Assembly: GCA_036172245.1 (NCBI GenBank)
Contig: JAYWIR010000018.1
Span: 1,426,001 to 1,490,000, forward strand
From: Raillietiella orientalis
Lineage: Eukaryota
Reading direction: 5' to 3'
DNA length: 64,000 bases
Under the pieces are notes generated by a model, which had not been told where the DNA came from, did no database searches, and saw nothing but the letters and a program-made list of their open reading frames with translations. Shown in pieces: positions 6,267-56,593 of this stretch; within the stretch, counting starts at the first letter, position 1; the number at the start of each line of letters is the position of its first letter. A program made the position numbers and the translations under genes.

Positions 6267-7394
6267 AAGACAGAGGAGAGCTGGAGTATTGGATAGAATC
6301 CGGGAACGACGACGAGGCGTTCGCCATCTCTGCCACCAACGGCACGGTTCAAGTCAACCGCGCCCTGGACCGGGAGCTGAGGCCGTCGTACGCGCTGGTG
6401 GTCGTGGCCGCGGACAGGAGTCCGAGGAGGCTGTCTTCTTCCGCCCACGTGTCCATAACTGTGCGCGACGTCAACGACGTGACGCCGAGGTTCGTCAGCC
6501 CTCCCGAGGTCGAAGTCACGGAGAACGCTCCCGCCGGGACGATTGTGACGGCAGTGAAAGCGGTCGACGAGGATGAAGGGCGCAACGGTCACGTGGAGTA
6601 CTCCCTGGATCCCGGGTCACCCTTCTCCCTGGGCGTGGTGGACGGCATGCTGCGCCTGACCTCCCCTCTGGACCGCGAACTCCGCTCCAGCTACGCGCTA
6701 CGGATCACCGCGCGCGACAAGGGCAGACCTCCTCTGTCCGCCTCTCTCGACCTGGTGATCCGCGTCCTGGACGAGAACGACAACGACCCCGTCTTCGACT
6801 CGCACCAATACAGCGCCCTGGTCGCCGAGAACGCCAGCGTCGGCGCGGTGGTGACGCGCGTATCGGCCACGGACCTCGACTCCTCCTTCTCCTCCTCCTC
6901 CTCGACGGCTGGGAGCGGGAAATTCCCGGAGATCGGAGACGAGGAGCTCAACTACTCGGTGGTGGCCGGAGACCCCAATCTGGACTTCTCCCTGTCGAAG
7001 AGCACGGGCATCTTGCGCGTGGCGAGCAAGCTAAACCGAGAGAGGACGCCCCGCTACGTCCTGTCGGTGAGGGCAGAGGACTCCGGCGGGAGATTCGACG
7101 TCGCCACGGTCACGGTGATCGTCAACGACGTGAACGACAACGCGCCGGTCTTCGTGGATTCGCCCTACGTCGTCCATGCGCTGGAGAACAACGCGAGGAA
7201 GCTGCCGCTGGCGCTGGTCACGGTCCTCGCCCGCGACGCCGACAGCCCCGCCTACAGCACCCTCAGCTACCGGCTCAGGGACGGCGACAAGAGGTTCTCC
7301 ATCGACGCCTCAACCGGGGAAGTGGCTCTGCTGAGCCAACTGGACAGGGAAGAAGCGGAAACGCACACCCTCGTCGTGGTGGCCATGGACAACG
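6267..7394 (+). CDS. ft: Fat/FAT4-like cadherin exon (cadherin repeats)
   Basis: ttccag|AAGAC acceptor, AACG|gtagga donor. Repeated LDRE, DENDNDP and DVNDNAP motifs. 1128 nt, phase 1 to phase 1. Confidence 0.92.
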
Positions 7395-19391: not shown

Positions 19392-22300
19392 GAGATTTCG
19401 TCTTCGGGATCACCGCGAAGGACGCCGACTCCGGAGAGAACGCTAAGGTCACGTACTCCCTGCGCGAGGAGCAGGGCACGCCGGCGTTTCAGATCGACCC
19501 GGTCACTGGGATCATCACCCTCAAGGAGCAGCGTCCCGGAGGAAGAAACGCCTCCATCCTCCGGATTCTCGCCACGGATTCCGGGACCCCCTCCCGCTCT
19601 TCGGAGATGGAGCTGACCGTCTGTTACCGGGAGAGGAAGCAATTTCCGTCCATCGGCCCGTCGGGTGGCCGCTTCGTGATCCGGGAGAACGCGGGGGACG
19701 CGCCCTCCAGGATCACCTCGCTGGAGGGTTCCTCGCCAAAGAGAGGGGAGCGGGGTAGAGTGCGCTACTCCATCGTGGGGGGAAACTTCGGAGGGGAGTT
19801 CTCGGTCAACGTGACCTCGGGGGAACTGCAGGCGTCGTCGCCGCTCGACCGCGAGGCGAGGTCCCGCCACGAGCTCTGGATCGGCGGTTGGGACTCGGAC
19901 GATCCGCCACTGGGCGCGTTCGTCATGGTGACAGTCGAAGTGGAGGACGCCAACGACAACGCGCCGTCCTTCGGCCTTCCAGCGTACAAGCTGCAGGTGC
20001 CCGAAGAGGAGACTCCCTTCTTCGAGCTATCCGCAGTCCGAGCGACCGACCCGGACAGCGGCGACAACGGTCGCGTGACCTACCGACTGCTTCCGGCGGA
20101 GAGGAAGGAGGAGGCGAGGATAGACGCCGACGCCGACGAGATCCCCTTCGAGATCGGCGAGACCACGGGGTTGCTGCGCACCACCCACAAACTGGACAGG
20201 GAGCAGCGCGACTCGTACGCGTTCCTCGTGGAGGCGTCTGACCTCGGCAGTCCTCCGCTGAGCCGCCGGACTCACGTCTTCGTGTCGGTCCTCGACAAGA
20301 ACGATAACCCTCCCCGCTTCAGCCGGCTGTTCAGCGTGAACGTGACGGAGAATGCCCCCGCGGGTACCTTCGTCGTCCAGGTGACCAGCTCGGACAGGGA
20401 CGTGGGAGCCAACGCTCGAGCAACGTACAGCCTGGTGGAGAACCCTGGTGGCAAGTTCGCAATCAATTCCTCCACCGGGATGGTGACGACCCTCGAGGTG
20501 TTGGACCGGGAGGAGGCGGAGGAGTACGCGCTGAAGGTGGCGGCTGAGGACGGGTCGTGGAGGTCGGAGACGCCCCTGACCGTGTCCGTTCAGGACGAGA
20601 ACGACAACGCCCCCGCGTTCCGCAGCCGCTCATACTTCTTCGAGATAGCCGAGTCCCCCAGCCCGGTTGCTTTCGTGGGACGGGTGGAGGCAGAGGACCG
20701 GGACAGGAAGGGAGCCAACTCGTTCGTGTCCTACTCTCTCCGACACCGCTCCGATCTTTTTGGCATCGACCCCAGCTCGGGGGAGATCCTTTCGAGGAGA
20801 GCGCTCTCTTACGAGCGTGGAGTCGTTCGCGGATCTCCCGGGAACCGCCACTCGCTCGTGGTGGTCGCGACGGACGGTGGCGTGCCGCCCCTGTCCGGGG
20901 AATGCATGGTCATCATCAGCGTCCTGGACACCAACGACCACGCGCCGAGGATACTCTCCAGGGACCTCTTCCTGCCCGTGGTGGAGGGCCTGGATCCTGG
21001 TTACCGGGTCGGTCGGGTTGAAGCTCAGGACGACGACGTAGGAAGGAACGCGGAGGTCACGTTCTCGGCTGCCGGGGGGAACGCGTCCTCGTTCCTGGAC
21101 ATAGAAGAGGATACCGGCTGGATCTTCCTCTCCCGGCGTCCCGACTCCAGGAGGAATGCTGTGTTCGTCCTGACCGTGCGCGCCAGCGATCAGGGCATTC
21201 CCCGACTCCACGACGAGGTGAACGTTACGTTCGTGGTCACAGGGGTCAACGCCTTCGAGCCAGAGTTCCTGGTGTCCAGCTATCAGGTCAGCGTTCCCGA
21301 AAACGAGCGTCCGGGAACCACGATCGTGACCGTCCGCTCGTTCGACCGCGATGAGGGGGTCAACGGGATGACCCGCTACATGCTGGAAGAGGGTGACCTG
21401 GATGGCACCCTGATCCTCGACCAGGACACGGGCGACGTGGTTCTGGGACGCCCGCTCGACTACGAGCTTCTCCGGGAGTATCGCCTGAACATCAGCGTGG
21501 TCGACTCAGCCATGTTCCCTCGCCGATCCGTGGCCACACTGACCGTCGTGGTCACCGACGTCAACGACAACATCCCTGTTTTCAACAGCTCCGAATTCCA
21601 TGTGAGCGTGCCTGAGAACTTGCCTCCGGGAAGCTGGGTCACCGAGCTGTCTGCAAATGATCCGGATTCGCCTCCCAACGCTGTCGTCCGCTATGCCATC
21701 GTGAGCGGAAAGGACAAGGACAGGTTCTCCGTGGGGGAAGACACGGGCATCGTCTTGGCCCTGGTGACCTTCGACTACGAGATCAATAAGGAGTACTCCG
21801 TGAACATCCTCGCCAGCAACCCAGGCACAAGCTACAGTGGGATAGCCAAGCTGAAGGTGCACGTAACGGGAGTCAACGAGTACTTCCCCAAGCTGGCGCA
21901 GTCGGTGTTCCGCTTCTATGTGTCCGAGTCGGTGCCTGTGGGCACTGAGGTGGGCACGGTGACCGCCAGCGACCAGGATGACGGAGAGGACGGGGAGGTC
22001 TTCTACCTGCTAGTCGGTCAGAGCGGAGAAAAAAGCTTCTGCATCGACCACGATTCCGGGGTACTGAGAGTCGCGCGACCCCTGGACAGGGAGTCCCAGA
22101 ATCGCGTGGTGCTCACAGTGATAGCCAAGAACGCCGGAAGCATCCGGGGAAACGACGTGGACGAAGGGCAGATTATCGTGACCATTCAGGATGACAACGA
22201 CCCGCCTGCGTTCGCCAAGCCCTCTTACCAGGCCAGTGTCTCCGAGACGAGTCGCATCGGCTCCGAGGTCATCGTGCTTCAGGCCACAGACAGAGATGCC

Positions 22301-24339
22301 AAGCCACCCAACAACCAGTTCGGCTACTGGCTGCTTCCTGATCCGGAGGTCGGTGGCAGAGATGGCTCTGAGCTCCCCTTCCGCATCGACCGCGTCTCTG
22401 GCCGCGTGGAGACCGCCGCGTCCCTGGACAGGGAGCGCACCGAGTCCTACCACATGCTGGTGATCGCCATCGACAAGGGTTCCCCTCCGAAGACAGGGAC
22501 GGCCTCACTGGTCGTCCTCGTGGAGGACGCCAACGACAACGCACCCGAGTTCCCCGAAGGCGGTCTCCGGGGGTTCGTCTACGAGAACGAACCCTCCGGC
22601 ACCGTGGTGATGGTGCTGTCGGCCTTCGATAGGGACTCCACTGCCAACGGTGCTCCCTTCTCATACTTCTTGGTCGACGATGGAAAGCTCGAGCCGCCCT
22701 TCGAGCTGAAGAGGAGCACCGGGGAGCTCTCCACGACCCGTGGCCTGGACCGCGAGACGGATGCTGAGTTCTTCCTCGCTGTCCGCGTGGAGGACTCCGG
22801 CATCCCGACCCTCTCCTCCCTGCACAAGCTCCGAATCTCCGTCCTGGACAAGAACGACCGCCCATCGAGACCCAGGAGGGTCAGGGTGCACGTGTTCTAC
22901 CTGGCGGGAACCTTCTCCGGGAAGATTGCGGACATCCGTCCCCTGGACGAGGACCTCACGGGGGACTACCGGTGCTCCTTGGCTTCGGGAGCTTCCGGAG
23001 GCTTCCTGTCCGTGGAGAGAGGCTGCGAGCTCCACTCCTCCAGGAATGAAGAGGATGACCTTGTCGTCAACTTCACCTCGTCGGGAAACGACGGCGTCCA
23101 CGACAGTGTAGTGTCCTCAGTGTCCGTGAGCTTCCGGACGCTGAGCAACTGGACCTTGGAGAACGTCGTGGTCCTCAGCATGATGAACACCACCCCGAGC
23201 GCTTTCCTCCAGAAGGGCTACCGGGGCCTGGTGGAAGTCCTGGAGGAGCTCTTTCCCCGCGACGAAGTCATCGTGTTTTCCATTCTGCCCGTGGACCACC
23301 GCTCTGACGTCTTCCTCGTCGTGAGAGATTCCTCCGGCTACAGGAGCCCGCAGGAGATCAGGCAGAGCATCCTCTTGTCGGAAAAGAGGATTTCCAGAGC
23401 AGTGAACGTGCAGGAGTTGGTCGTGGACTTCCGTCTGTGCTCCGAGTCGCCGTGCAGAAACTACGGGCAGTGCTCGGAGGTCATCAACATTAACAGGGAG
23501 ATTCATATCGCGGACAGCCCCTCCTTGGTCATAACGTCCCCTTCACTGAGCAGGCAGACAACCTGTGATTGCCCGGAAGGATTCATTGGCCCCAGGTGCG
23601 AGTTCCGGAAGGATCCTTGCGCGTCCAGCCCCTGCTTCGAAGGCGCCTCCTGCATCGACCGCGGCTTCGATTTTTACTGCCAGTGCCCCCTTCACAGGGA
23701 AGGAAAGACGTGCGAGGTGGTCATGCAGAGGGTTTGCGAGAGCGACCCCTGTGCCAATGGGGGAACCTGCCAAGAAATGGCCTTGGGGAAGTTCTTCTGC
23801 CTGTGCCGATCCGGGTTCGAGGGGGTGAGCTGCGAGACCGTCTCCGATTCGTGCCTGCTCCACCCCTGCAAGAACGCGGGGAAGTGCGTCAACAGCTACC
23901 CTGGGTATTCCTGCTTCTGCCCTGCCAACTACTTCGGCGCCCACTGCGAGAAATCCTCTCTGGGGTTCACGAGGCTGTCCTACGCTCAGTACCCCAAGCT
24001 CGACCCCAGCACCAACGATATATCCATCACGTTCTCTTCCAACCAGAAGAACGCACTGCTGGCCTACAACTACGGGTCGTCCAACCAGGGAAGGTCCGAC
24101 TTCTTGGCCCTGGAGATCGTGGACGGAAAGCCGCGCTTCTCGTACGCAGGCATGCGCACGACGACCAGCTCGATCCAGCTGGACAAGGACGTTGCTGACG
24201 GCGAGTGGTACAAGCTGAACGCCATCAGGAACGGCAAAGTCATTTCCCTGAGTCTGTCCGTGTGCACGGACGGTGAGAACTGCACCGAATGCGACCTGTT
24301 CGACTGGGGTTGCTACGTGGACGGCCACGGAACGGCAGG
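19392..24339 (+). CDS. ft: Fat/FAT4-like cadherin large exon: cadherin repeats, EGF-like repeats, first laminin-G domain
   Basis: 4948-nt open exon (contains ORF 19607-24343) with many cadherin repeats, Cys-rich EGF modules (CxNGGTC, CxCxxGFxGxxCE) and LamG (DFLALEIVDGKPRF, VADGEWY). ctgcag| acceptor, |gtgagt donor. Confidence 0.95.
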
Positions 24340-24473
24340 GTGAGTCGCAGGAAACGCCAGAGAAGATCTCTTCTTCGCCCCCTTCTCCCTTGTCCCCCCG
24401 CCTCTCTCTCCTTTTCTCGCTCTCTTCTCATGCCCTTCTCCCACCCCACCTCTACTGATTCGTGTCTTTCCAG

Positions 24474-24975: not shown

Positions 24976-25490
24976 GTAAGGGTCAAGGCCTCGACCTCTC
25001 TTCACTTGTCTCGTCCTTGCGCACTCACCCTCGCAGTTGGTTCTCTAACCGCGCCGAGAACCGCCAAGCAGTCCTCGGACGCTTCCCTGTTCCCCTTCTC
25101 TTCACAGCTTTTCCGGCACGCATGTTTCCCTTTTTCAACCGTTCCCTCGGTAAGCGGAGCGTGGACTCCTCCCGGTAGGGGGAGCGAGCGATCCGTTCTC
25201 TGAAGCCCCCTCGCCCCCAGCAGGTCTCGGCCCGGCGGCAGCGGCAGCGATGGTGGTGGTGGTGCGTAGGGAGGAGCGGGAAGAGGCAAGTTTCGCGAGA
25301 GGAGGAGGAGAGCAAGGGTCACAGGGAAAAGATCGAGGAAGGCTTGTTCTGTGGAAACCAAGTTGCCCCTAGGCTGTGAGGGTGACCGGTCCCTTTCCGG
25401 GGTGTCCACTTTTTCCGCGTTACCTGTCCTCGCGCCTCCTTGAGTGTTCGGAGGGCAGAAAAATTCATTCCTTCTCCCTTCTCCTCGCAG

Positions 25491-27293
25491 ATCGAGAACG
25501 GGATCCTGAGGTACACGTCCAGGTCGGGCACGCAGTCTCCTGTGGATATGACCGACGATGGGAACACCAGGCTGGATAACGGGAAATGGCACAACGTCAC
25601 CCTGACCTCGGACGAGGACTACTTTTCCCTCCTTCTGAACGGAAATCCCATCGGGGAGGAGCTGGATGTCCGGATCATCCATGACTTTCTGGACCCGCGC
25701 CTGACGCGGCTTAGCATCGGCGGAGGGGACATCCCGCACAACCACTCCGGTAAGTCCCCCGTGACAGGGCGAGGAGAGGACTACTCCTCTTCCGCCTTTC
25801 CTCCAGGATTTCATGGGTGCATGTCTACATTGGTGATCAACGGTGTCGTGCAGGCGTTCATCGGTGAGGGACCGTTCCTGGAACCCGTCCACCACGGGTC
25901 CGTCCACTTGGGCTGCTTCCCAGAGGCTTTCGGCGCGCCGGGCTCCGCCGACCCTCTCAGCATCGGCGTGACGCTGGTCATCGTATTCTTCGTGGTCCTG
26001 CTCGTCGGCCTGACCATCAGCCTGGCGGCATTCCGCCTGCGCAGGCTCCGTAGGGAGAAGCCAGGAGACCCGCGCAAGCAGAACGGGTTGGCTCCGTCCG
26101 GAGGCGGCCGCTACGCGGCCAACGGTGTCCACACGGGCGACGCCCTCAAGTCGCGCCTGCAACCCGGCCGCCGGATCAAGGAGCTGGCAGACCGACCTCC
26201 GCGGCCGGATGTCCTCGAGAGGGAGATGGCGCCGCCACACCCCATCGTCCGCTCTCATCCCTTTTCACCTCCGCTCCCGGACGCCGCCGAGTACCCGGAG
26301 CACTACGATCTGGAAAACTCCAGCTCAATCGCCCCTTCCGACATCGACGTGATGTTCCACTACCGGGGCTACCGCGACGAACCCCTCAAGCGGTACAAGT
26401 CCGGCCCGCGCCCGCCGCCCTCCGTCTACAAGCACAGACACTCCCCCCATCAGTTCCCTCCTTCCCCTTCCCCGCGAGACTTGGTGCGGAATCCCGGTGT
26501 CACCTCCTCCTCGAGGGGCTCCCCCGGGACTCTCAAGATGCAGAGCACCCCTCTGGCGAGACTGAGCCCCAGCAGCGAGCTTTCCCACCCCAGGATCCTC
26601 ACCCTCCAGGACATCAGCGGCAAGCCGCTGCAGAGGGCGTTCCTGGCCGGTTCCCAGGGCGCTCGCATCAAGGACGTCACCTCGGCGAGCGAGCGCAGCC
26701 TCAACAGTCCCATCTCCCGGCTCAGCACGGGCAGCACAACGTCCCCTCCCCCTTCCCTTGAAGAAGACAAGCGCGTCGTTGCGGTGGACCGGTCGCGCGG
26801 TCGCGGCTCCGGGGCGTGCAGCCTCGTCAGCACTCTGGACGGGATGTCGGACGACTCCGACGGCGGGGGAGGTGGTGGTGGCGGCGGCGACGTGGCCGGA
26901 GGCAGCGTGGACGACGGAGACTCCAGCTCGGAATGCAGCGGGAACGACTCGTTCACCTGCTCGGAGATGGAGTACGAGGCCGGGAAGGACTTTGGGTCGG
27001 AGAACTCCTTCTTGCCCTCCGGGAGGTTCCCAACGGACAAGGACTTCGACTCCTTCCGCGGTTCCCTGAGCACCCTAGTCGCATCGGACGATGAGCACTC
27101 CGTGGTCGGCGGACGCTCGGGCGGGGTCTACGCCAAGGGCTCCGACTTCGGCTGGGACCACCTGCTCAACTGGGGTCCCAACTTCCAGAGCCTCATGGGG
27201 GTCTTCAAAGACTTGGCAGAGTTTCCCGACTCCCCAGCGCTGAGGTCGAACCACAGATTCGAGATCAGAAAGCCAGACGAGGAGTACGTGTGA
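25491..27293 (+). CDS. ft: Fat/FAT4-like cadherin last exon: LamG, transmembrane helix, intracellular domain
   Basis: TM segment IGVTLVIVFFVVLLVGLTISL. Fat/FAT4-type intracellular motifs EHYDLENSSSIAPSDID, SFTCSE, FRGSLSTLVASDD, WDHLLNWGP and C-terminal EEYV-stop identify the Fat (ft)/FAT4 class rather than Fat2/FAT1-3. Confidence 0.93.
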   Translation: MENGILRYTSRSGTQSPVDMTDDGNTRLDNGKWHNVTLTSDEDYFSLLLNGNPIGEELDVRIIHDFLDPRLTRLSIGGGDIPHNHSGKSPVTGRGEDYSSSAFPPGFHGCMSTLVINGVVQAFIGEGPFLEPVHHGSVHLGCFPEAFGAPGSADPLSIGVTLVIVFFVVLLVGLTISLAAFRLRRLRREKPGDPRKQNGLAPSGGGRYAANGVHTGDALKSRLQPGRRIKELADRPPRPDVLEREMAPPHPIVRSHPFSPPLPDAAEYPEHYDLENSSSIAPSDIDVMFHYRGYRDEPLKRYKSGPRPPPSVYKHRHSPHQFPPSPSPRDLVRNPGVTSSSRGSPGTLKMQSTPLARLSPSSELSHPRILTLQDISGKPLQRAFLAGSQGARIKDVTSASERSLNSPISRLSTGSTTSPPPSLEEDKRVVAVDRSRGRGSGACSLVSTLDGMSDDSDGGGGGGGGGDVAGGSVDDGDSSSECSGNDSFTCSEMEYEAGKDFGSENSFLPSGRFPTDKDFDSFRGSLSTLVASDDEHSVVGGRSGGVYAKGSDFGWDHLLNWGPNFQSLMGVFKDLAEFPDSPALRSNHRFEIRKPDEEYV

Positions 27294-32734: not shown

Positions 32735-35700
32735 TTACATTTCTTCCAATGTTAGTGATTGTAACTTGAGTTTTCCTTCCTCACGTGCATCATCTTCCAG
32801 TAAGGGTAGGTGAGTTATTTGAGAATTAAGCAAATGACTGGGCACATAGAAAACATTATTTCCAACAGACATCTTGGACTGCAACAATAATAGTGACTTC
32901 CTCAACTGATATGTTTTTTTTGCCATTTCCGCCTGGCAGACATAGTCCACTGGGCAGTTAACAGAAAGCAATGCATGTTGATGTGACAATGTCATCAGCT
33001 CTGATTGCAGCTGCTCCAGTTCATGTGGTTCTGCAATTCTATCAGCAAGTCTACTCCAGACCTGAGACACCCGCAAATATCTGGAAAAAATCTGGCCACC
33101 CTGAGCCCAATCGGCTATATGTTGCTGATGAGGAGTCAGTTGCTCCAACATTTCTTCAAGGAAATGATGGCGCTCATTCACAACAGCACTAGCAGCAAGG
33201 TGATGTACCAGTATGTGATGACACTCAGCCCAAAGTCCAGCTTTAAGAAGGTATCTGGCTTCTGCCTCATACAACTTCTCAGAGTGGGCATGCACAGCCT
33301 TAGCACCATATACCCAGCTAGCAGGAAGCTGGAGAACATCCAGCAAGAATGCTTCCTGTTCTGGATTTTCTACTGCTGAAGCTTGCCTCATAAGTAAATG
33401 CTTAATGGCAACAGCACGCTGCTGCACATGACTGAGATGTAACAACACGAAGGCAGCCCACTGCCACAATCCCAGTGATTCCAGCTGACAAGCATAATCC
33501 ATATGTAACTTGTCAATACTATCTGGCAAAAAATGTACATCTGGCATAGCACCCAAGCATTCAAGAAGCAACCAGCTGTCTGCAATAAATCAATCTGGCA
33601 AGTTCAAAGTCTTCTTACCTCAGTCTGCACTCCAGAACATCATCAGTATGTCCTGCAGGACAAAGCAGCTTTCCTGCATGCTGACAACACCCACAATACA
33701 AACACAACAGCTGATATCGCAAATCCCATGGACCTTCTTTCTCGTGTTTCTGCACATATGGAGCAACAGGTGGATATCCATATTCCATTTGGGTAAAATT
33801 ATGCTGATACTGTAGTAAAACTTCTCTGATGGAAGCAAAAGGTGGACAAAAGTACCACAAATGCAAAGCAAATGTACGCAACCAGTCAAGGTCTGCACAT
33901 GTACTGATCAACTGCTGACTGCTTTGCCACTCAGGCAACCCAGCTAATAGTGCTATTAACTTTAAGCGATGTACATCCACAAACTGATCTGCTTTATGCT
34001 TCCGCCAAAAATCCAGCTGGCAGACCAAAAGTTCACGGAAAACATGAGAGCCAAGTGCTTGGCACAGCAATAATGAAAGACGCCAATCACCATTCTGTTG
34101 TGCTACATTTGCAGCTTGGGTAATCTGAAGCCCTGTCAGGAGACTAAATATGATGTCAACATGAGATTCATTAAGATGGCGTTCCATCTTTCCACACTCC
34201 TGTTTGATATCCACTGCAGTAATTTGCTCCAGCCAATGACTAAGCATCTGCCTTCTGGATACTTGTTCCTGATAGCTGTTGGCTTCTATGCTCTGATTGA
34301 GATGTTAAATTCTGAACAAACATACCAAATTTCTTAGGAGAAGAAAGACGACCCCAAAGAGCCATACATAGGTTCCAAACTTGAGTCTCATAAGTGCTGC
34401 TAGATGAACGTCCTGCTAAATTAGACAAGGCATGAATGGCCTCTGGACCCAATACAGTATGAGCTTGGGGACATTCATTACAATCAGGGGTGGTAATCTT
34501 GGTTAGCTTGAGCAAAGCTTTTAGGAATTCCTCATGCTGTTGTGTGTTCTGATTGCTATTGCCCAGCTGTTTGATGAATACAGGACGAGATGGGGGAAGC
34601 AGGAGGGAGTTACTGTCATCCAAACTACGCCATGGATGAATCCATTGCAGTGCAGATGTCCATCCCACTCGGAAGGAGCAGCCCATAAAGCTACTCCAAT
34701 CACCAAATTTTTGTCCAATTTGACCCATCAAAGATAAAGTCAAAGACAATTCAGCATATGGTTGAGATAAGTTTGTTTTTGGTATTAGATGGGGTCGTAT
34801 CAAATCATTCTGCAATGAAGTGACCAGGGCAGAAGCCTTCTCAGAAGCATAATAGTTCTTATGCATCTGAGACACCTTAGCACCAGGTCCAAGTGGTCGT
34901 TTTAATAAGGCTTTGCCTCGGGGAAGTAAGGCAGATAGAGCTGAAAATCACTGAAATGCGATTGCAACTCCTAATAACAGCACTCACAAATTTCTCCTAT
35001 TTCCTCTTCCTTTTCTTCTTCAGGAAAGAAGCATGCTTTCATGAGCTGCACGCGTTGGCTGGAAGCTCCCAAAGCTTTAGCTAACTTCTGAGTAGAAGGT
35101 AGGATTGCTGAATGAGAATCCTTGGGAGCCACATCTTGCATTTCTTCATCAGTATACAAAGCAGATGATATCATTGGAGACAAAAAATCTTTTGAAGGAA
35201 TGGAGTCTATCATCAAGTCTCCTTCTTGAGCTGCTTGTGGAATAGGTTGCTGTTGTAGTTGCAAGGGAGGACCACTGGCAACTGGTAACTCTTCTTCATC
35301 TGAATCTTGTAATCCATACTTAGAAAAATGAGGTACCTACAAATCTTTGTATTTAAAAAAAAAACACACACAATTACAAGTCTGAAATTCACCTGAAATA
35401 TCCAGGAACCCGTCTCTGGTTTATAATCCAGAAATTTGGCACCCATGTGAAGAGTTGCCCGCTCTAAACGTTCAGCATAAGCTAAACTCTTAATACGCTC
35501 AGGGTCAGATATTGGTGTGCGTGTTGTTTTGTCACTAGGCCACACACAATCTAAGGTTACTTCAGCTCTCCGATTTAATCCTTGTCCAAAAGGAGGTTTT
35601 TGAGAATCATCAGGATATACAATTACTTCCTTGTGTCTTATATGTACTGAAGCAACTCTGATATCCAAGAGTTCCATTTCACATACCTATGTCATCAAGA

Positions 35701-38700
35701 TGTAACCCTGCAACATTGATGCTTCCAGGAAAATAGATGCTTCCATAGCCTTGTCTGCCAACAGTGAATCCATCCACCCAGCATTCATCATGCTCATCTA
35801 CCTGAGTGGTTAAGGCTTCTAAACTAGGAACTGTATAATATCCGCAACGTTGCAAAATAATCCCAGCAGGATGTAGTTGCTGATCACCACTGTTTATATT
35901 AAGTCCTTCATTTTCTCCTCTGAATTTTACAGGAAGTATTTGGGTATCACCATCTGGTTCCAAAATGAACTTTTTTTCATCAGCATTCATAACAGTTATT
36001 GTGTCTTCTGAAACAACTGGAAACATGTTTCCAGAGTCAGTGCATACACGTGTATTGGCAAAAACATGGGGTATGAATTCTGGAGTCGACACAAATCCAT
36101 ATTTCGAAAAATGAGGCACCTAAAGAACCTTTTATTTTCAATGAGTACATACACAGTTCTCACCTGAAATACCCAGGAACCTGTCTCTGGTCTATAATCT
36201 AGAAATTTGGCACCCATGCGAAGAGTTGCCCGCTCTAAACGTTCAGCATAAGCTAAACTCTTAATACGCTCAGGGTCAGATATTGGTGTGCGTGTTGTTT
36301 TGTCACTAGGCCACACACAATCCAAGGTTACTTCAGCTCTCCGATTTAATCCTTGTCCAAAAGGAGGTTTTTGAGAATCATCAGGATATACAATTACTTC
36401 CTTGCGTCTTATATGTACTGAAGCAACTCTGATATCCAAGAGTTCCATTTCACATACCTATGTCATCAAGATGTAACCCTGCAACATTGATGCTTCCAGG
36501 AAAATAGATGCTTCCATAGCCTTGTCTGCCAACAGTGAATCCATCCACCCAGCATTCATCATGCTCATCTACCTGAGTGGTTAAGGCTTCTAAACTAGGA
36601 ACTGTATAATATCCGCAACGTTGCAAAATAATCCCAGCAGGATGTAGTTGCTGATCACCACTGTTTATATTAAGTCCTTCATTTTCTCCTCTGAATTTTA
36701 CAGGAAGTATTTGGGTATCACCATCTGGTTCCAAAATGAACTTTTTTTCATCAGCATTCATAACAGTTATTGTGTCTTCTGAAACAACTGGAAACATGTT
36801 TCCAGAGTCAGTGCATACACGTGTATTGGCAAAAACATGGGGTATGAATTCTGGAGTCGACACAAATCCATATTTCGAAAAATGAGGCACCTAAAGAACC
36901 TTTTATTTTCAATGAGTACATACACAGTTCTCACCTGAAATACCCAGGAACCTGTCTCTGGTCTATAATCTAGAAATTTGGCACCCATGCGAAGAGTTGC
37001 CCGCTCTAAACGTTCAGCATAAGCTAAACTCTTAATACGCTCAGGGTCAGATATTGGTGTGCGTGTTGTTTTGTCACTAGGCCACACACAATCCAAGGTT
37101 ACTTCAGCTCTCCGATTTAATCCTTGTCCAAAAGGAGGTTTTTGAGAATCATCAGGATATACAATTACTTCCTTGCGTCTTATATGTACTGAAGCAACTC
37201 TGATATCCAAGAGTTCCATTTCACATACCTATGTCATCAAGATGTAACCCTGCAACATTGATGCTTCCAGGGAAAAAGACACTTCCATAACCTTCTCTAC
37301 CAACAGTGAATCCATCTACCCAACATTCTTGGTTTTCATCTACCAGAGTGGCCAACTCTTCCAAACTGGGGATGGTATAATAGCCACAACGTTGCAAAAC
37401 AATCCCAGCAGGATGTGGTTGCTGATCACCACCACCTATCCTCGGTTCTCCATCTTCTTTCGAGGTTTCAGGAGTTATTCCAGCATCACCACCACCTGGT
37501 TCCAAAATGCGGTTTCCTCGATTAGCATTAAGAACTGCTATTGTGTCATCTAGGGAGTTGTTTCCAGAGGCATTGCATAAAAATTCGTCAGAAACCAAAG
37601 GCTGCCTAAGTTCTGGAGTTGAGGTAAATGGCTGCAATCTAGTTACCATGTTAATAAGTAGGGAACTCCATGCTAATTACCCACCTAGATGTCAATGGCT
37701 CAGCTACTGAATTATCTCCCTCCTTGACTGCATCCACTGTTACATTCTGAGGATTATCATCTGAAGTGCTTTTCTGGATGACCAGTCTTTTCCAACTTTT
37801 TCTGGGAACAAATGCTCTTGGACTGACAGTTGTATTGTTTTCTTCCAATCCTTCAAATAAAGAGGAACGATTCATAGCTATTGGAGTGATGGGGGTAGGT
37901 CTCAGAGCTGACTGCAATTGAGAGCCAACTTTGTACTGATTGGCACGCAGAAATGCCCTCTGATAAATGGGATTTGTAGGTTTTAATATCTCCTCGCGGC
38001 GTCCTGTGTCATGCAATATACCACGGAAAAGAGGTGAATCTCCATAAGGACTGCTTGCCAAAGAAAGCACTTGTTGATGCACATCTTGGACCTGAGTCAC
38101 TGGGCCCATGCTATCACAAATAAGCAAACATACATGTCATGTAGCTAAATTACCTGCTAGTTTGCAAATTTCCGACATTCAAGTTAGAAGTACTCATTCC
38201 TATGGCACTACCCATTCCAAAAGGCAAAGTGTTACCAAAACCTGATGGAGTTCCAAAATTCATAATTCCAGGTTTATTGGTCAAACTGGAACCAAAAGGA
38301 CTTGGAGCCTGCCCTGCCGTAATCCCTGTGGCTCCAAAACTGGGAGCAGCAGCACCAAAATTGAATGTGCCCATAGTTGTGGCTGGTTTATTGGCACCAA
38401 AAATTCCACCCGTGGAAGCTGGTTGTGCACCAAAACCACCAAAGCTGCTGGCAGTGGAAGTGAAAGGAGCCCCAAAAGCAGCTGGTTTGGAGCCAAACAG
38501 AGATGTGTTAGTGGTTGCAGGGGCACCAAAAGTAAAAGTACTAGGAGCAGTTGTAGTACTCCCAAATGTTGGTTTATTACTAGCAAAAAGGCCTCCCTGG
38601 AATATCAACTTGATGATGGTCCTCTGGAACTTATCTACTAACCTGTTGCTGGTTTGTCTGACCAAAAGTAAAAGCTGTTGTTCCAAAACTGGTGGGCTGA

Positions 38701-40718
38701 GAAGTACTTGCCCCAAACAGAGTACCAGTAGGTGCTGTAGCTGAAAAGAATTACATTTGCTGGTTGGGATTCCAAATTAAGTTTCTAATAAACCTCCAAA
38801 TAACGGCCTATTACTCTGTCCAAAAAATCCGCTACTGCTGATAGCTGGAGTGCCAAACACAGATGAAGTAGTTGCAGGTGTTGCAAATGTTACAGGTTTG
38901 CCAAAAGTAGGTGCCTGAACTTGGCCAAACAATCCACTGGCACTAGTGACAGCTGGAGTGCCAAAGCTTCCTACATGACTATCTCATAAGAATCAACAAC
39001 TATGTGAACACTAAATTTACCAAAAGCTGGTTTGTTAGCTGTAGCACCAAACAGTCCACCTGTTGCTGGTGTGCTAGCATTAGCACCAAATAGAGGTGTA
39101 GTTACTGAAGCACTGCCAAATCCTAAAGGCTGACTTCCTTTACGGTTTGCTAAGTAGTCTTCATAACGAAGTTCCTGAAAGTTTTCAGAACAATAACTTG
39201 ATTTATCCACAAAACACTTACTTCCAGAGACTTAGTTTCATATTCTTTCATGCAAGTAATACATTGATGCCTTGTGTTGATCTGAGTTTGAATGCCATTT
39301 TTCATCATGGTATCATTGCCAGTTGGAGGACTGTATTTCATTGTTGTGCCTGTAGGTTGGTTTAGGGAACTGGTACCAAATGTGGTACCAAATAAACTGC
39401 TAGCTGTAGTGGTAGTAGGAGTTTGTCCAAATAATGATGAACCACCCGGTGCAGAAAACAAACTGCTCCCACTAGACATACCAAAGCCACCAAATACAGG
39501 CTTATTGGCTTGTCCAAATGTCACAGTATTCTGGCCAAAAAGCGTGCTAGGTTGAGAAGCTCCAAACAAACTTGTGGATGGTGCATTAAACCCTGAATAA
39601 AAACATTCATAGGTATCCACGATATAACACCGTACCAACCTCCAAAAGTGCTCGTAGTTGCTGGAGCAGCAGCACCAAATGATGTGTTTGCATTTCCAAA
39701 CAGACCACCAGTATTTGTGGTACTAGAACTGCCAAACATGGAGGTGTTTGTACCAAATGATGAAGTTCCAAAACCTGCTGGTTTGGTGCCAAATGCTGGA
39801 GACTGCTGACCGAACAAATTAGTGGAACCACTGAAAGTTCCTGGAAATTGCACACAAATATCAAAAATCCATCCAAGTTTTACACTGTATAAATTTCATT
39901 CACATGAACCACACAATACATACTACAAGCAAATATATTCAGCTGCTGCCTTAATGTTAACAACAAATGTTGCTAGTATTATTTCAAAACATAAACGACA
40001 GCAAATGAAAATGGAATAAATGATTTTCTTACTACTTTGATGTACATGTTCCACACAAGTTGGTTACATATGCAAATTCTAAAACCCACTATTATGTCTG
40101 ACTTCGGTGTTTTTCACATCCGTGAGGTTTTTGTTGATTTGCATTTAAAAAGGAAGGATTAACTCATCAATCTATGGACGCATACACAAAAAAAAAAGGA
40201 TCCCTGATTTCTAAATTTGAAACACCAATCTACGATTTGATGAAACAAATAACTAAATCAAATCTTTGGCTTTTCCTTTTTTTCCTATTTAAAAAATAAT
40301 GGCTATATATACTGCAAACAGAATATACTACAAATTACGGTGAGATCGGATCTCGAAAGGAAAGAATTACGGGAAACAAACAGGTCTTTTTTTCTTTGAC
40401 ATTTGGAAAAGCTCAAGAGAAAAAAATGACATTCCCAAAGTTCAGTGGATTCATTCTTAACGCTTTTTGAATGTAATGTATCGTACATCGGAGTTTGTAG
40501 GGATACTTTGGGGCATTTTTCAAATTTTAATCTAAAGATGGAAAATGAGCTATTGGACATACACCCGAAATCCCTCACCCCAACAGTTGATAGGTATTCC
40601 CATAATTTTATAGAAAATAACTCTATACTGGTAATAGGTTTGCAAATCTCATCAAACAATATTAAAATTAGACGATTAAAAGCATACCTGAACCAAAAGC
40701 TGGTTTATTGCCAAACAT
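32735..40718 (-). CDS. NUP98: Nuclear pore complex protein Nup98-Nup96 precursor, 18 exons, ~2136 aa, with three tandem autoproteolytic domains
   Basis: Exons in transcription order: 40718-40688, 39840-39640, 39592-39222, 39174-39021, 38970-38794, 38740-38643, 38596-38154, 38110-37685, 37638-37229, 37188-36935, 36890-36458, 36417-36164, 36119-35687, 35646-35393, 35336-34988, 34940-34326, 34285-33619, 33575-32735. All introns are GT-AG and all phases join (6411 nt). Contains FG/GLFG repeats, GLEBS motif ([23 protein letters not shown]), SPYGDSPLF, autopeptidase domains (HPAGI...KPPFGQGLN...[14 protein letters not shown]) and the Nup96 body ([29 protein letters not shown]). Confidence 0.95.
35393..37638 (-). 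repeat. Tandem 771-bp-period repeat (3 copies of the Nup98 autoproteolytic-domain exon pair)
   Basis: ORF ends at 35679/36450/37221 are spaced exactly 771 bp. Unit = 433-nt exon + 40-nt intron + 254-nt exon + 44-nt intron. About 35636-37271 reads as a perfect repeat; the outer parts are diverged. Confidence 0.95.
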
Positions 40719-49453: not shown

Positions 49454-52400
49454 TCAGGGTGGGTTCCTCGATGTTGTTGTCTGGGCTTCGTCCTCAATCC
49501 TCTTCAGGATGTAACGGTACGTCCAGGCCTGGAGTCTTCCACAATTCCTGATACCGATCTCCTTCTGGATCAATCCTTGCAGAATCTCCATCAGAGATGC
49601 GGCTATCCTGGCTTTCCTAATCTTCCACCACCGCACAAGTATAGCGGTGATGAGGAGAGCAATGGTTGTTCTCACCATAGGGTTGTAGCAGGGAACATTT
49701 GCATTTCCCTGAGACATCCCGGCAAGTGTTCCCATCACCGAGGTGGTGGTCATTCCTATGATCCTTTTCAGGATAAGCCAGTCTCGGAGCAGTGTGGGAC
49801 ACGTCAAGACGTGTAGTCTCGTATCCGTGTCTCCACATGCCTGGCAGTCTTCATCTTCCCGTTTTCCAGTAAAATATTTTAATCTAGACCCGCTCAGGGT
49901 TCCTCCGTGGTAAAACATCAGGAGGTTGTCCTGGGTGTCCTGCGGAAGGTCACTCCTCCAGAGTGTCGTGCCGATCGCTAACAGGTAGATCCTGTCACTC
50001 CCGTAGCGATCAGCGGCTTCCTGGAGGGCACTGATGTCCTTATCCTCTTCAATTATCAGTCTTCGGAGGTCTTGTTTGTTCACCCTGGACCAGGCGAAGT
50101 CCCTATGGTTTTTCCACACTTCGCATGTCCCATGGTAAATCTTCCTAACATCATCTCTATATACTGAAGTATCCGAGAATGATGTAGGTATTCTCCTCTT
50201 CTCCATTCCTGGATACGTTGTAGGTTAATTCTGGGCCGCTGGTAGATCCAGCTTCTCGTATCCGAGGGCACTTGAAGCATCCAACGGATCACCAGGATGG
50301 ATTCCTCCTGCCAGAGTTCCCTACTTCTTGGGACAATCTTCAGTTGGTGCTTTCGCACCAGCTGTTGCTTCCCTCTCCAGGTGGGGTCGATGGTGAGCCA
50401 TTCCCCTGCTCGCCCTAGCAGCACAGTCATAGGGCCTTCCGAGTTGTTTAACAACATCCAGTAGGCTCTGTGAGCCGCGTATGGCCAGTCATCCCATTGA
50501 GCAGCGATTTCCAGGATCTGTTGCGTATCCATGATTTCCACGGAATGTGCAAGCGACTTCATCCCGGAACCGCCCTCTTCCTTGTGACGACACAAGGGTT
50601 TCAATGTAACCCTGGGACGATATTTCCCCCAAAGGGTTTTCCTCTGCAGTTTTTCCACTTCTCTGGTGGTGTCCTTGTTCAATCGGTGGGAGGCCGCTCC
50701 GAAAAGTGTCTTTGGAAGGAGTACTCCATTCCAAAGACTGGCCTTCCCCTTCATGCCAAGGTCCAGTGAAGTGTACTTTGCTGCTTCCTTCGCTGTTTTC
50801 TCTAGGATTTCTGTCCATAATAGTTTCGACGCGAAGTCTCCGTCAATGTGAACTCCTAGTTATTTAGGGTGGTCCACTGTTCGGAATGCACTTCCCGTGA
50901 GCACGGAGAGTTCCAGAATTCCGATAGGCAAAAGTTGGCTTTTCTGGGCATTGATTTTCAAGTCCAATCCCTTTTCCATCAGCTCCATCACATCCAGGAA
51001 CGCTTTCTGTTCTCGTTCTCCCTTGATGAAGAAAATGAGATCATCCGCGTAAGTCAGATTTGTGAGCTTTTGATCGTCGATGGTAATTCCATGGAGACGT
51101 CCACCTCTCTCGATGAAAGAAGACAGTGCCTCCATGTAGATAACAAACAGCATCGGGCTTAGTGAGTCGCCCTGACGGACTCGTCGTTCCATCCGAATAT
51201 CTGCTGTTTCTACCACGTTGATAGTAATTCGAGAGTACTGCTTCTGAAGTACCATCCTCATGAAGTTGCTGAAGTATTCCGGAAGGCCCAGCTTTTCCAT
51301 AATCTTCAGCAGCATCCCATAGTCGATAGTGTCGAAAGCCTTCTCCATGTCGGTGAACACCAGCACCAGGTTCTCACCGATGAATCGGCTAAGTCCCACA
51401 GTGGCCTGGGCACACTTGACATTGTCCGACATGTGGCGTCCGGGCACCGCGCATGACTGAACGGGAGAAATCAGCCTCGGTATAACCTTGCCTAAGCGGT
51501 TGGCCCAGATCTTTGCCAACCACTTGGTATCAGAGTTCAAGATTGAGATTGGCCTCCATTGGGCAACCTTGGTTAGGTCGCCTCCTTTTGGCAACAATTT
51601 CATCCTACTCTCGTAGAAGAATTCTGGTAGTCCTCCTTCTTCTCGGATGCAGAGGGTCAGCTGGTGGAACAAACGCAGGTAAGCATGCAGGTACCTTGGG
51701 TAGTGCGTCATAGGAACACTATCCGGGTCTGCCGCCACATCCTTGCGTAATTCCAGAAACGCAGCCTTTATCTCGTCTTCGTAGAAATCCTCCTCCAGTC
51801 TCTTCCTTTGGAGGTCATCCGTCTTCTTTCCTAGATGCTTCATGAAGACCTTTTGATTTATTACACACAATTGTTGTCGTCGGAGGTGCCCCGTGTAATG
51901 CCTTCGAAAGACATCCACGATGTCTTCCGTCGTTCGTCGACTATAGCCGCCGTATTGGATACAGAAGATGCCTGTTGTCAGATTCTTCCTTTCCAGCACA
52001 CCGACTTCCCCTTTAACATTTTGAAAGACGTACCGACTCTCGTACTGTTCGTAGTACCTTGAGAGAGAGCGATCTTGGGTGTTCAACTCCCGGTACGCTT
52101 CCTGTCTCAACCTCTTGTCGGCAAACTGCATATTGCAGAACAAATGGATCCTATGATTCACACTGTCCCAGTCGGCGACTCTGCTGATAGTTGTATCTCG
52201 CAGAATCGCCTCGATGACTTCCTGGTGACAGGGGAGCGTCTCGAACCAGGAGGGCATGCAGATGAGCGCCGCCCTGGTGGCCTTGTTGCGACGAGGATTT
52301 TCCGTTCGGAGGGAGAACCGTACTAACGGATGATCAGACAGCAGAGTCTGCATGTCACGAAATCCTTGTATGCGGTTCTCGATTTCCGAACTATGCAGGA

Positions 52401-52774
52401 CATGGTCGATCGGCTTGTGGCTAGCTGTTCTCCACTGAAGTTCAGAATCATCGGACAGCCGCCGATACGCCGTCCTTCCTCTAGCGTCCTGGGAATGGGT
52501 GATCACATCCAGAATGTTCAGATCACCTGCAACGATGAGAATGTCCTTCGGTGCGACTCGTTTGCGGAGAGCTTCGTGCAAAGCCTCCGCGCACCGATGT
52601 TTCAGCTTCCATATACGTTCACCAGGAACAGTGAACGTTAGCGGACCAGGACAGCTGTACGCCGATAATTCGTCCAGGCATGGGACAGAAGCTTTCCAGG
52701 ATTGTGTGGGCGAGCTCGTTCTTCACGAGGATCGCCACACCCATGGTTTTCTTTTGCCCCTTGCTGACGAACAG
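49454..52774 (-). pseudogene. Element A ORF2 (APE endonuclease C-part, reverse transcriptase, C-terminal zinc finger), disrupted
   Basis: ORFs 50860-52581, 50080-50754 and 49454-50206. Premature TAA at the usual KYLG position (50860) and a frameshift near 50200. Confidence 0.9.
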
Positions 52775-53690: not shown

Positions 53691-56593
53691 TCACAACCCG
53701 CTAGAGGAAGAGACTATCCTTTCCAGGATGCCCTCGAGGTCCCTCGTCATAGCTCCCAGATGGGACCAGCCGATCGCGATTCGCAGGTAGCGACCCGCGT
53801 GTACGATGGGGTCCCTGTCGCTGCTCCCTCTGTTTGCTGCGCTCCAGGCGGCCACAATCCCTCGGAGGCAGCAGAGCGCTGCCAGGGTTGAGGCTGGTGG
53901 CAGGGCGTCTCGCACGAAGAGGAGTCTCACAACGTCTCTGGGGGTACTGCCGGCCGGCATAGGGAGGGTCGTAGCATAGCGTTCCCACAAGGGCCGAAGG
54001 GCAGCGCAGTCCACTAACAGATGGGGGAGGGATTCCTTCTCCCCACACACTGCACAGTTCTGTCTCACGTTCCCCAACGTCCAGTGGTGGCGGCGCGCGT
54101 TGCAGGGAAGACCCCAGTGCAACAACAACAGCGCCGTTTCCTGCCACTTGAGGGGGAGGGTGGATGCGTCTCTAAATAACGGGGGCCACTCTAGGTCATC
54201 CGCCGGGATGCCAAGCAGCTCGCCCCATCTCCGTATTCCATGCGGGTGAACGCTTGGGGTTGCGGCGTCTGCCAGTTCCCTCATTGTCCACCCGCTTAGA
54301 TCCTTCTCCTTGCCCGCTTTCCGGCAGGAGACTTGCCATCTCGGCTTCCGGCTGTTTTGAAGCGCCCTTCGTAGGAAGGGCAGCGCCGTGGCCAGTGGGG
54401 TCGTCTCCGCCCAAGTGCTTCTGGCGGGACACACGGGATCATGTTCCGCAGCGTGCAGCGGGTGTAGATGCCGGTGCGCAGGCGGTTGCAGGATTCTCCA
54501 CTGATGTGTTTCAACTTTGCCCACGTTCCAACTGTTTCTTCCAGCCATGCGCTGGAGTTGGCAGGGCTGCAGGCCATCCACCCGTTCTCCTTTGCCAGGG
54601 TGGCCATGCGTCCCAGGAGAACTCCGCATCTTCTTATTTTCCGGCCGGGGCACAGAAGAAAAGACGCGAGTCCTTCAGTCCCGGACACACGTCTGGCGAG
54701 AAGGCGGGCTGGAACGCACCAAGGGGTGTTCCACATTTTCGCTGCGATGGCTAGAGTACGCCACCGCAGCTGTGTTTCCATTCGCTCCATCGTCAGGACG
54801 CTAAGACCTCCGTCCCGACGTGGAGCGCACAAATCCTTTAAAGGCACACGAGGCCTCCCGCCGCCCCACAGGGCGATGCGTAGGTCCTTTGTTCTTTTTT
54901 TCAGTTCACGGGGTACGGGGCAAACAAAAAGCAGAGGGCGAAGGAGGGGGGCCGCGAACGCGTTCCACACAGCGGCCCGTTCCGGCAAGTGAAGCTTGCC
55001 TTCCAGGAACGGGCCGATCGCTGACTCCACTTTTTGGAGACGACCTGACCTTCTGACTGGCAGAAGTCCCCCAACGGAACGCCGAGGTACTTCAAGTACC
55101 TCTCCGTGGGGATCCCCAAGCGGATCCAGTCAGGCCGTCCGACCCACGTCGCACCAACCGCTACCACCGATGACTTCGCCTTATTTACCCGTAGTCCAGT
55201 CCCGCAGCTAAGCAGATCGAAGAAATCCTCGACTGCGGCTGCCGGGGCGGACATGGGCAAAAGGAGCAGAAGATCATCGGCGTAAGCCGCTACGGCCGGC
55301 GTACCTAGACACGAGCTTGGCAGGGCAGCCAATGTCACCCTGTATGCTCTCAGCACCAGTTCGAAATAGGTGCTAAAGAGCAGGGGACTCAGGCTGTCGC
55401 CCTGCCGGATGCCGCGCCTCACCGGCACGCCGAACATGTGCTGTCCTCTGAAAAACAAGTTGATGATCGCATTGCGCCAGCAGGCGCGCAGGTAGACCGT
55501 TAAGGTGTCCGGGAAGCCCATGCGATCCAGGAGCTCCAGAAGGAGTTCCTGGTCCACGCAATCGAACGCTTTGTGCAGATCGACTGCGATCGCTAGAGCC
55601 CCCTTTCCTTCCCGGTCGTCCCTTACTTGCTGCGCTGGCGCCCTCAAATCAGGTTTGTCGACATTCCGTTCTTTTTCCAAATTTTTCTCGCGTTGCACAT
55701 GGAACCATGTGCTGGCGAAGAACAGGTTCGCTTCCATGCTTCGTCCGGGAACAGCGTACGTCTGTTCCGGGCTGACGAAGCTGTCAGCTACCTGCCCCAG
55801 TCGCGCAGCCCACAGTCCAGCCAGCAGCTTGGCGTCCGTGTTCACAATCGTGATCGGACGCCAGTTGCATAATTTTCTGAGGTCTCCTCCCTTAGGAAGG
55901 AGCCTCACCCTGGCTGACCGAAACGAGGCGGGAACATCGCCTTCGTTTTGGATCAGCCGTGTCAATTGGAGCACCAGGGGGGTCAGCTCTGCAGCGAAGC
56001 ACTGAAAGAACTCCGCCGGCAGGCCGTCCTCCCCTGGCGCCTTACGCCTCTTGAGCCTTTTAATAGCGGTGATGATTTCACCGGTCGTAAAAGGCTCGTC
56101 GAGGCTTTCTTTCTCCTCCTCTCCTATGGCCGGGGCTCCATCTGGGAGCAAGCGCCGCGAGACGTCCCACTCCGCAGGTACCCTGGCTTAAAGGGAGGAG
56201 TAAAATCCACGCACGAGGCGACGTATCGATGCCGGGTCCGAGTATTTCTGGTCCAGGTCGTCCAGCACGCTGGGCGGCCCGGTTTGCCAGGCTTGACGCT
56301 CGGCCCCGGCTTTGTACTCGGCCAAGCGACGGATGTCAGGGGTCCTCGCGAAACGACAGGCGTGCAAATACGCTCTTTCGTTGCGGGCCCCCTTACCAAA
56401 TCCCCGGGGCAGGCGGTGCACAGGGAACTCCTCGCAGAACTCGCGGACCGAGGCCTTCATGCGGTCCCAGTCTTGGAGATTCCGGAGGATGACGCCTCCC
56501 AGTACTTGGCGGAGATGTTCTGCCGCACCTGAGATGCGCGTCCAGTCCCCGGGCAGACGCCACGCCCTGGATGGTGGTCCTTTGTCGCGAGGC
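53691..56593 (-). pseudogene. Element B ORF2 3' part (reverse transcriptase and CCHC domain), frameshifted
   Basis: Overlapping ORFs 54901-56151, 54296-55030 and 53691-54653 with RT motifs and CAVCGEKESLPHLLVDC. Confidence 0.9.

Follow-up and report, generated by a model that had tools for sequence, protein, structure and literature searches.

The DNA considered here is a window of 64,000 nucleotides (nt) from Raillietiella orientalis (contig JAYWIR010000018.1, assembly GCA_036172245.1), and its minus strand carries an animal Nup98-Nup96 precursor gene in which the region encoding the autoproteolytic domain (APD) is repeated. Two full-length orthologues are collinear with the gene by tblastn, in the order FG repeats with a GLEBS motif, disordered linker, APD and Nup96. 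The APD is thus found between the FG/GLEBS-bearing Nup98 part and the Nup96 part of one gene, and the sole break in collinearity is that the APD segments are matched three times. The top matches of the C-terminal exon carry both PF12110 and PF04096. In a protein search, the nearest named Nup96 parts are those of an annelid and a mollusc (36% identity), and one further record reaches 39%. The gene is compact, the seven introns placed in the APD region being 49, 40, 44, 40, 44, 40 and 56 nt long, all of them GT...AG.

A direct-repeat search detected a unit of 771 base pairs (bp) that is present three times in tandem, with a start-to-start spacing of exactly 771 bp, and that is the only long direct repeat within the window; Tandem Repeats Finder, with a longest period of 500, gave nothing. 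The preliminary description had counted two units, which is one too few. Here, the units are called A, B and C in the order of transcription, and the two main exons of each are numbered 1 and 2 (Table 1). Each unit consists of an exon encoding a linker and the N-terminal half of the APD, a 40-nt intron, a 254-nt exon encoding the C-terminal half and ending in ...WVFQ, the next intron, and 24 nt encoding VPHFSKYG. Every unit boundary falls in phase 0, and each unit has its internal intron in phase 1. With the predicted consecutive splicing a single open frame runs across three APDs, at 229 codons per unit, where the canonical precursor has one APD.

The domain assignment is clear for all units. 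Matches to PF04096 (Nucleoporin2, autopeptidase S59) score 43.6 and 42.9 bits for the N-terminal halves and 83.7, 83.7 and 83.3 bits for the C-terminal halves, against a gathering cut-off of 28.4; the scan took in five of the six half-domain exons, and the sixth, C1, is 100% identical to B1. The halves also align lengthwise with solved Nup98 APDs, with 1KO6, 2Q5Y, 3TKN and 5E0Q among the matches. In addition, VPHFSKYG stands after all three domains, giving each the His-Phe-Ser cut site followed by Lys-Tyr-Gly, and HFSKYG is at least 90% conserved among 40 orthologues. As a separate observation, the 44-nt introns (36891-36934 and 36120-36163, minus strand) contain AATAAA, and retention of such an intron would extend the frame by about 60 codons. 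The AATAAA may reflect chance in A+T-rich sequence, or it may mark the end of a Nup98-only transcript.

Table 1 Features of the Nup98-Nup96 gene and its APD units (positions within the window)
Feature	Position	Strand	Evidence
Nup98-Nup96 gene (FG/GLEBS, linker, three APD units, Nup96 part), approximate ends	32744..39802	-	tblastn, open reading frame listing
Exon preceding the repeat: disordered part of the Nup98 linker, containing the motifs SPYGDSPLF and EEILKPTNP, no Pfam family	37681..38109	-	direct reading, Pfam scan
Exon A1: ancestral linker (PFTSTPE...) and N-terminal half of APD 1	37229..37631	-	PF04096 positions 2-53, E 4.4e-11
Exon A2: C-terminal half of APD 1 (HIRRKEV...WVFQ)	36935..37188	-	PF04096 positions 59-139, E 1.8e-23
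44-nt intron ahead of the chimeric exon, contains AATAAA	36891..36934	-	direct reading
Chimeric exon B1: VPHFSKYG (36890-36867), diverged linker FVSTPE..., N-terminal half of APD 2	36458..36890	-	reading, Pfam, alignment
Interval of switch from unit-3-type to unit-1-type sequence, 95 nt, identical in three units	36406..36500	-	last A/B difference at offset 428, first B/C difference at 524
Exon B2: C-terminal half of APD 2, identical to A2	36164..36417	-	unit comparison
Exon C1: the chimeric exon a second time, with 100% identity to B1	35687..36119	-	unit comparison
Exon C2: C-terminal half of APD 3	35393..35646	-	reading, alignment to solved APDs as query
56-nt intron ahead of the Nup96 exon	35337..35392	-	direct reading, alignment
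First Nup96 exon, VPHFSKYG then LQDSDEEE..., low end approximate	34990..35336	-	direct reading, tblastn

The origin of the repeat can be read from the head of exon B1. From 36890 to 36846 the minus strand reads GTG CCT CAT TTT TCG AAA TAT GGA TTT GTG TCG ACT CCA GAA TTC, encoding [15 protein letters not shown], which is VPHFSKYG followed in frame by FVSTPE. This bears out the fusion of the Nup96 start to an F-x-STPE linker start that the preliminary description had proposed at this position. The first part corresponds to the start of Nup96 (GTA CCT CAT TTT TCT AAG TAT GGA at 35336-35313, VPHFSKYG running on into LQDSDEEE), and the second is the paralogue of PFTSTPE, encoded by CCA TTT ACC TCA ACT CCA GAA from 37631 at the start of the upstream linker exon. 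The peptide alignment of A1 and B1 extends past FxSTPE through C..SGN, (D/E)DTI.V.NA, ILEP and GDQQ.HPAGI into the APD, interrupted by a single 3-codon indel, and because it carries on through these conserved islands the resemblance reflects homology and not a chance hexapeptide. The junction lies at 36867/36866, directly after the cleavage motif as had been noted: the chimeric exon matches the Nup96 exon through ...TAT GGA TT and the linker exon from A TTT on. As ATT at the junction is shared with both parent sequences, the breakpoints fall inside a 3-nt microhomology.

The upstream boundary of the linker exon depends on the splice model. Two frame-consistent models exist for the intron before A1 (37632-37686, minus strand), reading ...TSRW/PFTSTPE or ...TS(R)LQPFTSTPE. 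The model used here joins donor TGG/GTAATT to acceptor TTGCAG/CCA and starts the exon at 37631, whereas the alternative joins donor AG/GTGGGT to acceptor CTAG/A and fits the start at 37638 given in the preliminary description.

The octapeptide codons at 36890 and 35336 differ at 3 of 24 nt, all of them third positions and all synonymous, exactly as described before. The introns ahead of these two VPHFSKYG exons (44 and 56 nt) align poorly and only with large gaps, and between the A1 and B1 linkers there are 83 differences in 216 aligned nt in addition to a 9-nt indel, in agreement with the strong divergence claimed for both. Codon alignment with Nei-Gojobori estimates of synonymous (dS) and nonsynonymous (dN) divergence and their ratio (omega) separates the parts of the unit further. 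For the linker, A1 against B1 (72 codons), dS is 0.41 and dN 0.58, giving an omega of about 1.4; for the APD core in exon 1 (HPAGI...LDDI, 62 codons), dS is 0.53 and dN 0.084, giving 0.16, with a Fisher P of 1e-5 for the synonymous against the nonsynonymous counts. The whole unit, A against B (219 codons), gives dS 0.246, dN 0.174 and omega 0.70. The preliminary description would have taken a dN/dS near 1 across the duplicated APD as a refutation. The folded core gives a value well below 1, the linker does come out in that range (about 1.4), and the unit as a whole gives 0.70.

The octapeptide itself has accumulated three synonymous and no nonsynonymous changes in eight codons, with P = 0.011 if changes are random and 0.037 if only transitions are considered; one of the three changes is a transversion. 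Taken alone, this pattern is suggestive but not strong support for selection. Together with the adjoining core (omega 0.16, P = 1e-5), the synonymous-only change (P 0.01-0.04) upholds the earlier proposal that the internal cleavage site is under purifying selection. A decaying set of pseudo-exons was also considered as a candidate and rejected on the basis of the open frame, the core omega of 0.16 and the intact splice sites: when the 110 observed A1/B1 differences were scattered randomly on A1, the frame stayed open in 2.7% of 20,000 trials (P = 0.027).

The changes are unevenly shared between the two copies. Polarised against the 40 orthologues, nine of the ten residue differences in the core are derived in B1, with A1 matching the consensus, and the B1 core replacements are all conservative (V/I, E/Q, F/Y, R/K). 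A1 outscores B1 against 68 of 86 orthologues, and its linker aligns with orthologue linkers from about residue 24, while B1 mostly aligns from the APD onward only. Since A1 keeps the consensus and scores higher against orthologues, the upstream copy is, judging from these alignments, the conserved one, and the downstream copy appears to combine a free-running linker with a relaxed but still constrained fold. Within both linkers, an island reading (D/E)DTI.V.NA is kept upstream of the APD (A1 37556-37530 and B1 about 36785-36760, minus strand). It is short, resembles SLDDTISALN, the consensus of the orthologues, and could represent a linear motif not described before in the Nup98 linker.

The 3' parts of the units tell a different history. 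From unit offset 429 onward (343 nt), units 1 and 2 match at 100%, the 40-nt intron included, and this intron is identical in all three units. Over these last ~340 nt, unit 3 is about 97% identical to the other two, with seven differences within the 254-nt exon 2. Between A2 and C2 there are three synonymous and four nonsynonymous changes (R>H, R>H, R>K and V>I), all four derived in C2, corresponding to dS 0.054, dN 0.021 and omega 0.38 over 85 codons. Protein constraint alone was considered as the cause of the exon 2 similarity and rejected, given that dS is 0 to 0.054 there, compared with about 0.5 for exon 1, and that the intron is identical. Because constraint explains neither the identical introns nor the ten-fold drop in dS, gene conversion must, as far as the sequence comparison indicates, have homogenised the 3' halves when the duplication was already old. 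The great age that the preliminary description assigned to the first duplication consequently applies to the unit's first ~430 nt, on the evidence of dS (linker 0.41, core 0.53), the 3-codon indel and the diverged introns, and does not extend to the last ~340 nt, which were homogenised later.

The third unit appears to be much younger. The first 524 nt of units 2 and 3 are 100% identical, eight differing sites follow, and these eight also distinguish unit 1 from unit 3. Unit 2 is thus an exact chimera, with unit-3 sequence to offset 428, unit-1 sequence from 524, and no private differences. One unequal crossover in an ancestral A1A2, B1C2 arrangement would give A1A2, B1A2, B1C2, and a double assembler loop would give the same, so that the third unit would be either the product of a very recent unequal crossover or an assembler loop. 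It is quite possible, although short of probable, that the true locus has two units, with the A / (B1+C2) duplication being real and the middle unit an assembly artefact. Such an artefact would arise if the cycle from the shared 95-bp segment through A2, the 44-nt intron and B1 back to the shared segment were traversed twice, and the make-up of unit 2, whose first 524 nt are those of unit 3 and whose last 343 nt are those of unit 1, the switch lying in a three-way-identical stretch, is what this path predicts. However, a single unequal crossover within the same 95-bp stretch yields an identical structure, the 64-kb window contains no other long direct repeat or duplication artefact, and assemblers collapse tandem copies more often than they expand them.

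Whatever the number of units, the two-APD structure is with high probability real at the DNA level. The junction exists in short-read data: a 151-nt contig of a public run, apparently of DNA (Logan contigs; word share 0.12), covers 36815-36965 with no differences, running from 31 nt inside exon 2 across the 44-nt intron to 76 nt into the chimeric exon. The contig has a depth of 2, and such contigs give no copy count. The only other record from this run over 36459-39500 is a 37-nt piece with seven differences in the FG region, which is probably unrelated. A search for public sequencing runs over 33000-39000 listed this run alone and none of RNA. This contig, and a divergence between the copies that is too great to have been introduced by an assembler, sustain the earlier statement that at least two APDs are real.

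Building on the DNA anatomy, the open frame, the domain identities and the selection pattern observed, an order of events and a set of products can be predicted. An old in-frame tandem duplication would have copied the segment from codon 2 of the linker exon through codon 8 of the Nup96 exon, and the breakpoints, joined at the ATT microhomology, would have created a chimeric exon that supplies the last APD strand and the cut site VPHF/SKYG and then a second linker and APD. Both paralogues would have stayed intact, the upstream one nearly unchanged and the downstream one evolving faster under constraint on its core. The 3' halves would later have been homogenised by gene conversion, and the third unit would be a very recent addition, owed to unequal crossing-over or to the assembler. 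Consecutive splicing would give a precursor of the form FG-Nup98-APD1 / linker-APD2 / (linker-APD3) / Nup96, in which each APD is predicted to cut its own C-terminal HF/S bond in cis. The products would be a Nup98 ending in APD1, one or two free FG-less pieces of 229 residues that start with [10 protein letters not shown], continue with a diverged linker of ~74 residues and have the APD at their end, and a Nup96 starting SKYGLQDS. This combination of an old duplication, later conversion and a recent third unit, with units spliced consecutively and each APD self-cleaving, is considered moderately probable.

Consecutive reading of the units is suggested by the position of the cut site. The VPHFSKYG that heads B1 is useful only after A2, where it would complete APD1 and the cut site of Nup98, and its VPHF would therefore be expected to be conserved, now serving the FG-bearing Nup98 itself as its C-terminal strand and cut site, and not merely an extra copy. 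In addition, consecutive splicing would be expected because the introns are 40-56 nt long and skipping would remove at least 771 nt. Tandem exon duplicates often turn into alternative exons, and the units could instead be alternative cassettes with one APD per mRNA, for example by joining A2 to the Nup96 exon or A1 to C2, resulting in a canonical single-APD protein with variant linkers or APD halves. The phase-0 boundaries and phase-1 internal introns do keep every skip in frame. Yet the VPHFSKYG at the head of B1, needed only after an APD half, has been kept through three synonymous changes, the B1 core is under purifying selection, and cassette use would mean splicing out 771 or 1542 nt where the seven introns read are 40-56 nt. 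Entry into a chimeric exon from the exon preceding the repeat would moreover place a cut site at the start with no APD before it, and alternative use of the units is regarded as unlikely.

If the units are read consecutively, the products would depend on whether each APD cleaves. In the available text of two studies, the APD cleaves the precursor in cis, during or soon after translation, and the cleaved APD anchors Nup98, the principal FG nucleoporin of the pore barrier, to the scaffold on the flexible N-terminus of Nup96, of which residues 1-20 are sufficient in a pull-down, or on the Nup88 propeller (PMC11148069, PMC8421043). The available portion of the first of these proposes the anchoring contact as an early checkpoint of pore assembly (PMC11148069). 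It is rather improbable that the extra units are translated with non-cleaving downstream APDs, which would leave Nup98 and an N-terminally extended Nup96 carrying one or two inert APD folds. Fission yeast is viable with a Nup98-Nup96 that does not cleave, as far as the accessible part of that report describes (PMC4483485), nine of the ten core replacements fell on the B1 lineage, and C2 adds four, two of them at highly conserved columns; against this, HFSKYG is intact after every APD, and the core replacements are all conservative at an omega of 0.16. Self-cleavage of the protein into extra, previously undescribed pieces is what the sequence probably implies.

Several observations weigh against the reading of consecutively spliced, self-cleaving units. 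The linker has an omega of about 1.4 and the whole unit one of 0.70, and a test restricted to the B lineage finds changes at 8 of 41 synonymous against 10 of 145 nonsynonymous sites (P = 0.03), which assumes that synonymous changes split evenly between the lineages and is the weakest link of the selection argument. C2, the half-domain expected to free Nup96, has four derived replacements, of which R>K (in YRPETG) and V>I (in WVF) fall in columns with at least 90% agreement among the 40 orthologues. Skipping of units or joining of A1 to C2 stays in frame and is compatible with a canonical single-APD product. The lack of private differences in unit 2 is also expected from an assembler looping twice round a two-copy locus, and the short-read contig may come from the assembled sample itself and, at depth 2, fits both of the identical junctions. 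Finally, a protein search with the chimeric exon returned, among longer proteins, bird Nup98-96 only (59% identity, over the APD part) and none of similar length, and metagenome contigs contained no match to a degenerate DNA pattern encoding [12 protein letters not shown].

The gene shares its overall plan with the canonical animal Nup98-Nup96, such as human NUP98-NUP96, having the same order of FG/GLEBS, disordered linker, APD, HF/SKYG and Nup96 and the same Pfam domain, and the second APD exon is 67-73% identical to the nine best-scoring library proteins. It differs in that the module of linker, APD and cut site is present two or three times in one reading frame, so that the APD of Nup98 precedes another linker-APD and Nup96 is preceded by an FG-less APD. 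In yeast, Nup145N, Nup100 and Nup116 likewise represent several APD-fold domains that arose by duplication in one lineage, and the C-terminal domains of Nup116 and Nup145 are among the PDB matches of C2, as is the domain of Nup100. However, the yeast copies are separate genes that each have an FG domain, a Nup96 homologue coming after Nup145 alone, whereas the copies here are intragenic, lack FG repeats and each keep the HFS site. In yeast, only Nup145 is known to self-cleave. The Nup98-only isoforms of vertebrates and fission yeast offer another parallel, as the APD there likewise cuts off whatever follows HF/S and not only Nup96; according to the available portion of the source, their tails are short and derive from alternative splicing (PMC4483485), while a full second linker and APD from duplicated exons would be cut off here.

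Other precursors with tandem APDs were not encountered in the searches made. A search of 1.84 billion representative proteins with exon A2 gave 1561 matches. Of the best 150 of these, 148 match in a single stretch; of the two that match in two stretches, one is a fragment that retains an unspliced intron and the other a protein with a single APD. As whole-protein scores add over domains, a protein with two well-conserved APDs should rank at the top, although the search is blind to weakly similar tandem forms below 98 bits. A second APD was seen in none of 22 metagenome and metatranscriptome loci encoding relatives of A2, 14 of which have at least 750 nt on both sides. In the full-text literature, a coverage that leaves out most subscription journals, no description of tandem APDs in a Nup98-Nup96 precursor was found.

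If the reading is true, this precursor, with its two or three APDs able to cleave, would amount to a natural experiment on the logic of Nup98 anchoring, and the FG-less APD modules released would be expected to compete with the Nup98-Nup96 contact or to bridge it. It could be tentatively speculated that the free SKYG-linker-APD module of 229 residues, having its own Nup96-like N-terminus as well as an APD, binds the Nup96 N-terminus or Nup88 in place of Nup98, or daisy-chains Nup98 to Nup96 through APD-SKYG contacts, and in this way tunes the number of Nup98 molecules anchored at the pore, with a copy number (two versus three) that is still changing. If the copies are skipped or uncleaved, the locus would represent an ordinary lineage-specific exon duplication. 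The locus would also be a clean case of a microhomology-mediated intragenic duplication creating a working chimeric exon, and an example of gene conversion and unequal crossing-over shaping the copies afterwards.

The surroundings of the gene are heterogeneous in composition. The G+C content is 0.58-0.64 over positions 1-28000 of the window, 0.41-0.45 across the Nup98-96 gene, 0.31-0.33 at 40-46 kb and 0.57-0.60 at 52-60 kb, which is unusually strong variation within 64 kb for an invertebrate-like genome and may reflect isochore-like structure, repeats or a mis-join. The G+C-rich left flank contains very long frames resembling CELSR/Flamingo or FAT cadherins (6398-7783, 19607-24343 and 25440-27293, plus strand), one of which, of 1578 amino acids, has ten cadherin stretches together with EGF and laminin G domains; this cadherin gene on the plus strand neighbours the Nup98-96 gene and is convergent with it. 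In the G+C-rich right flank, RVT_1 and zf-RVT frames (50860-52581, 53691-54653 and 54901-56151, minus strand) represent copies of LINE-type retroelements.

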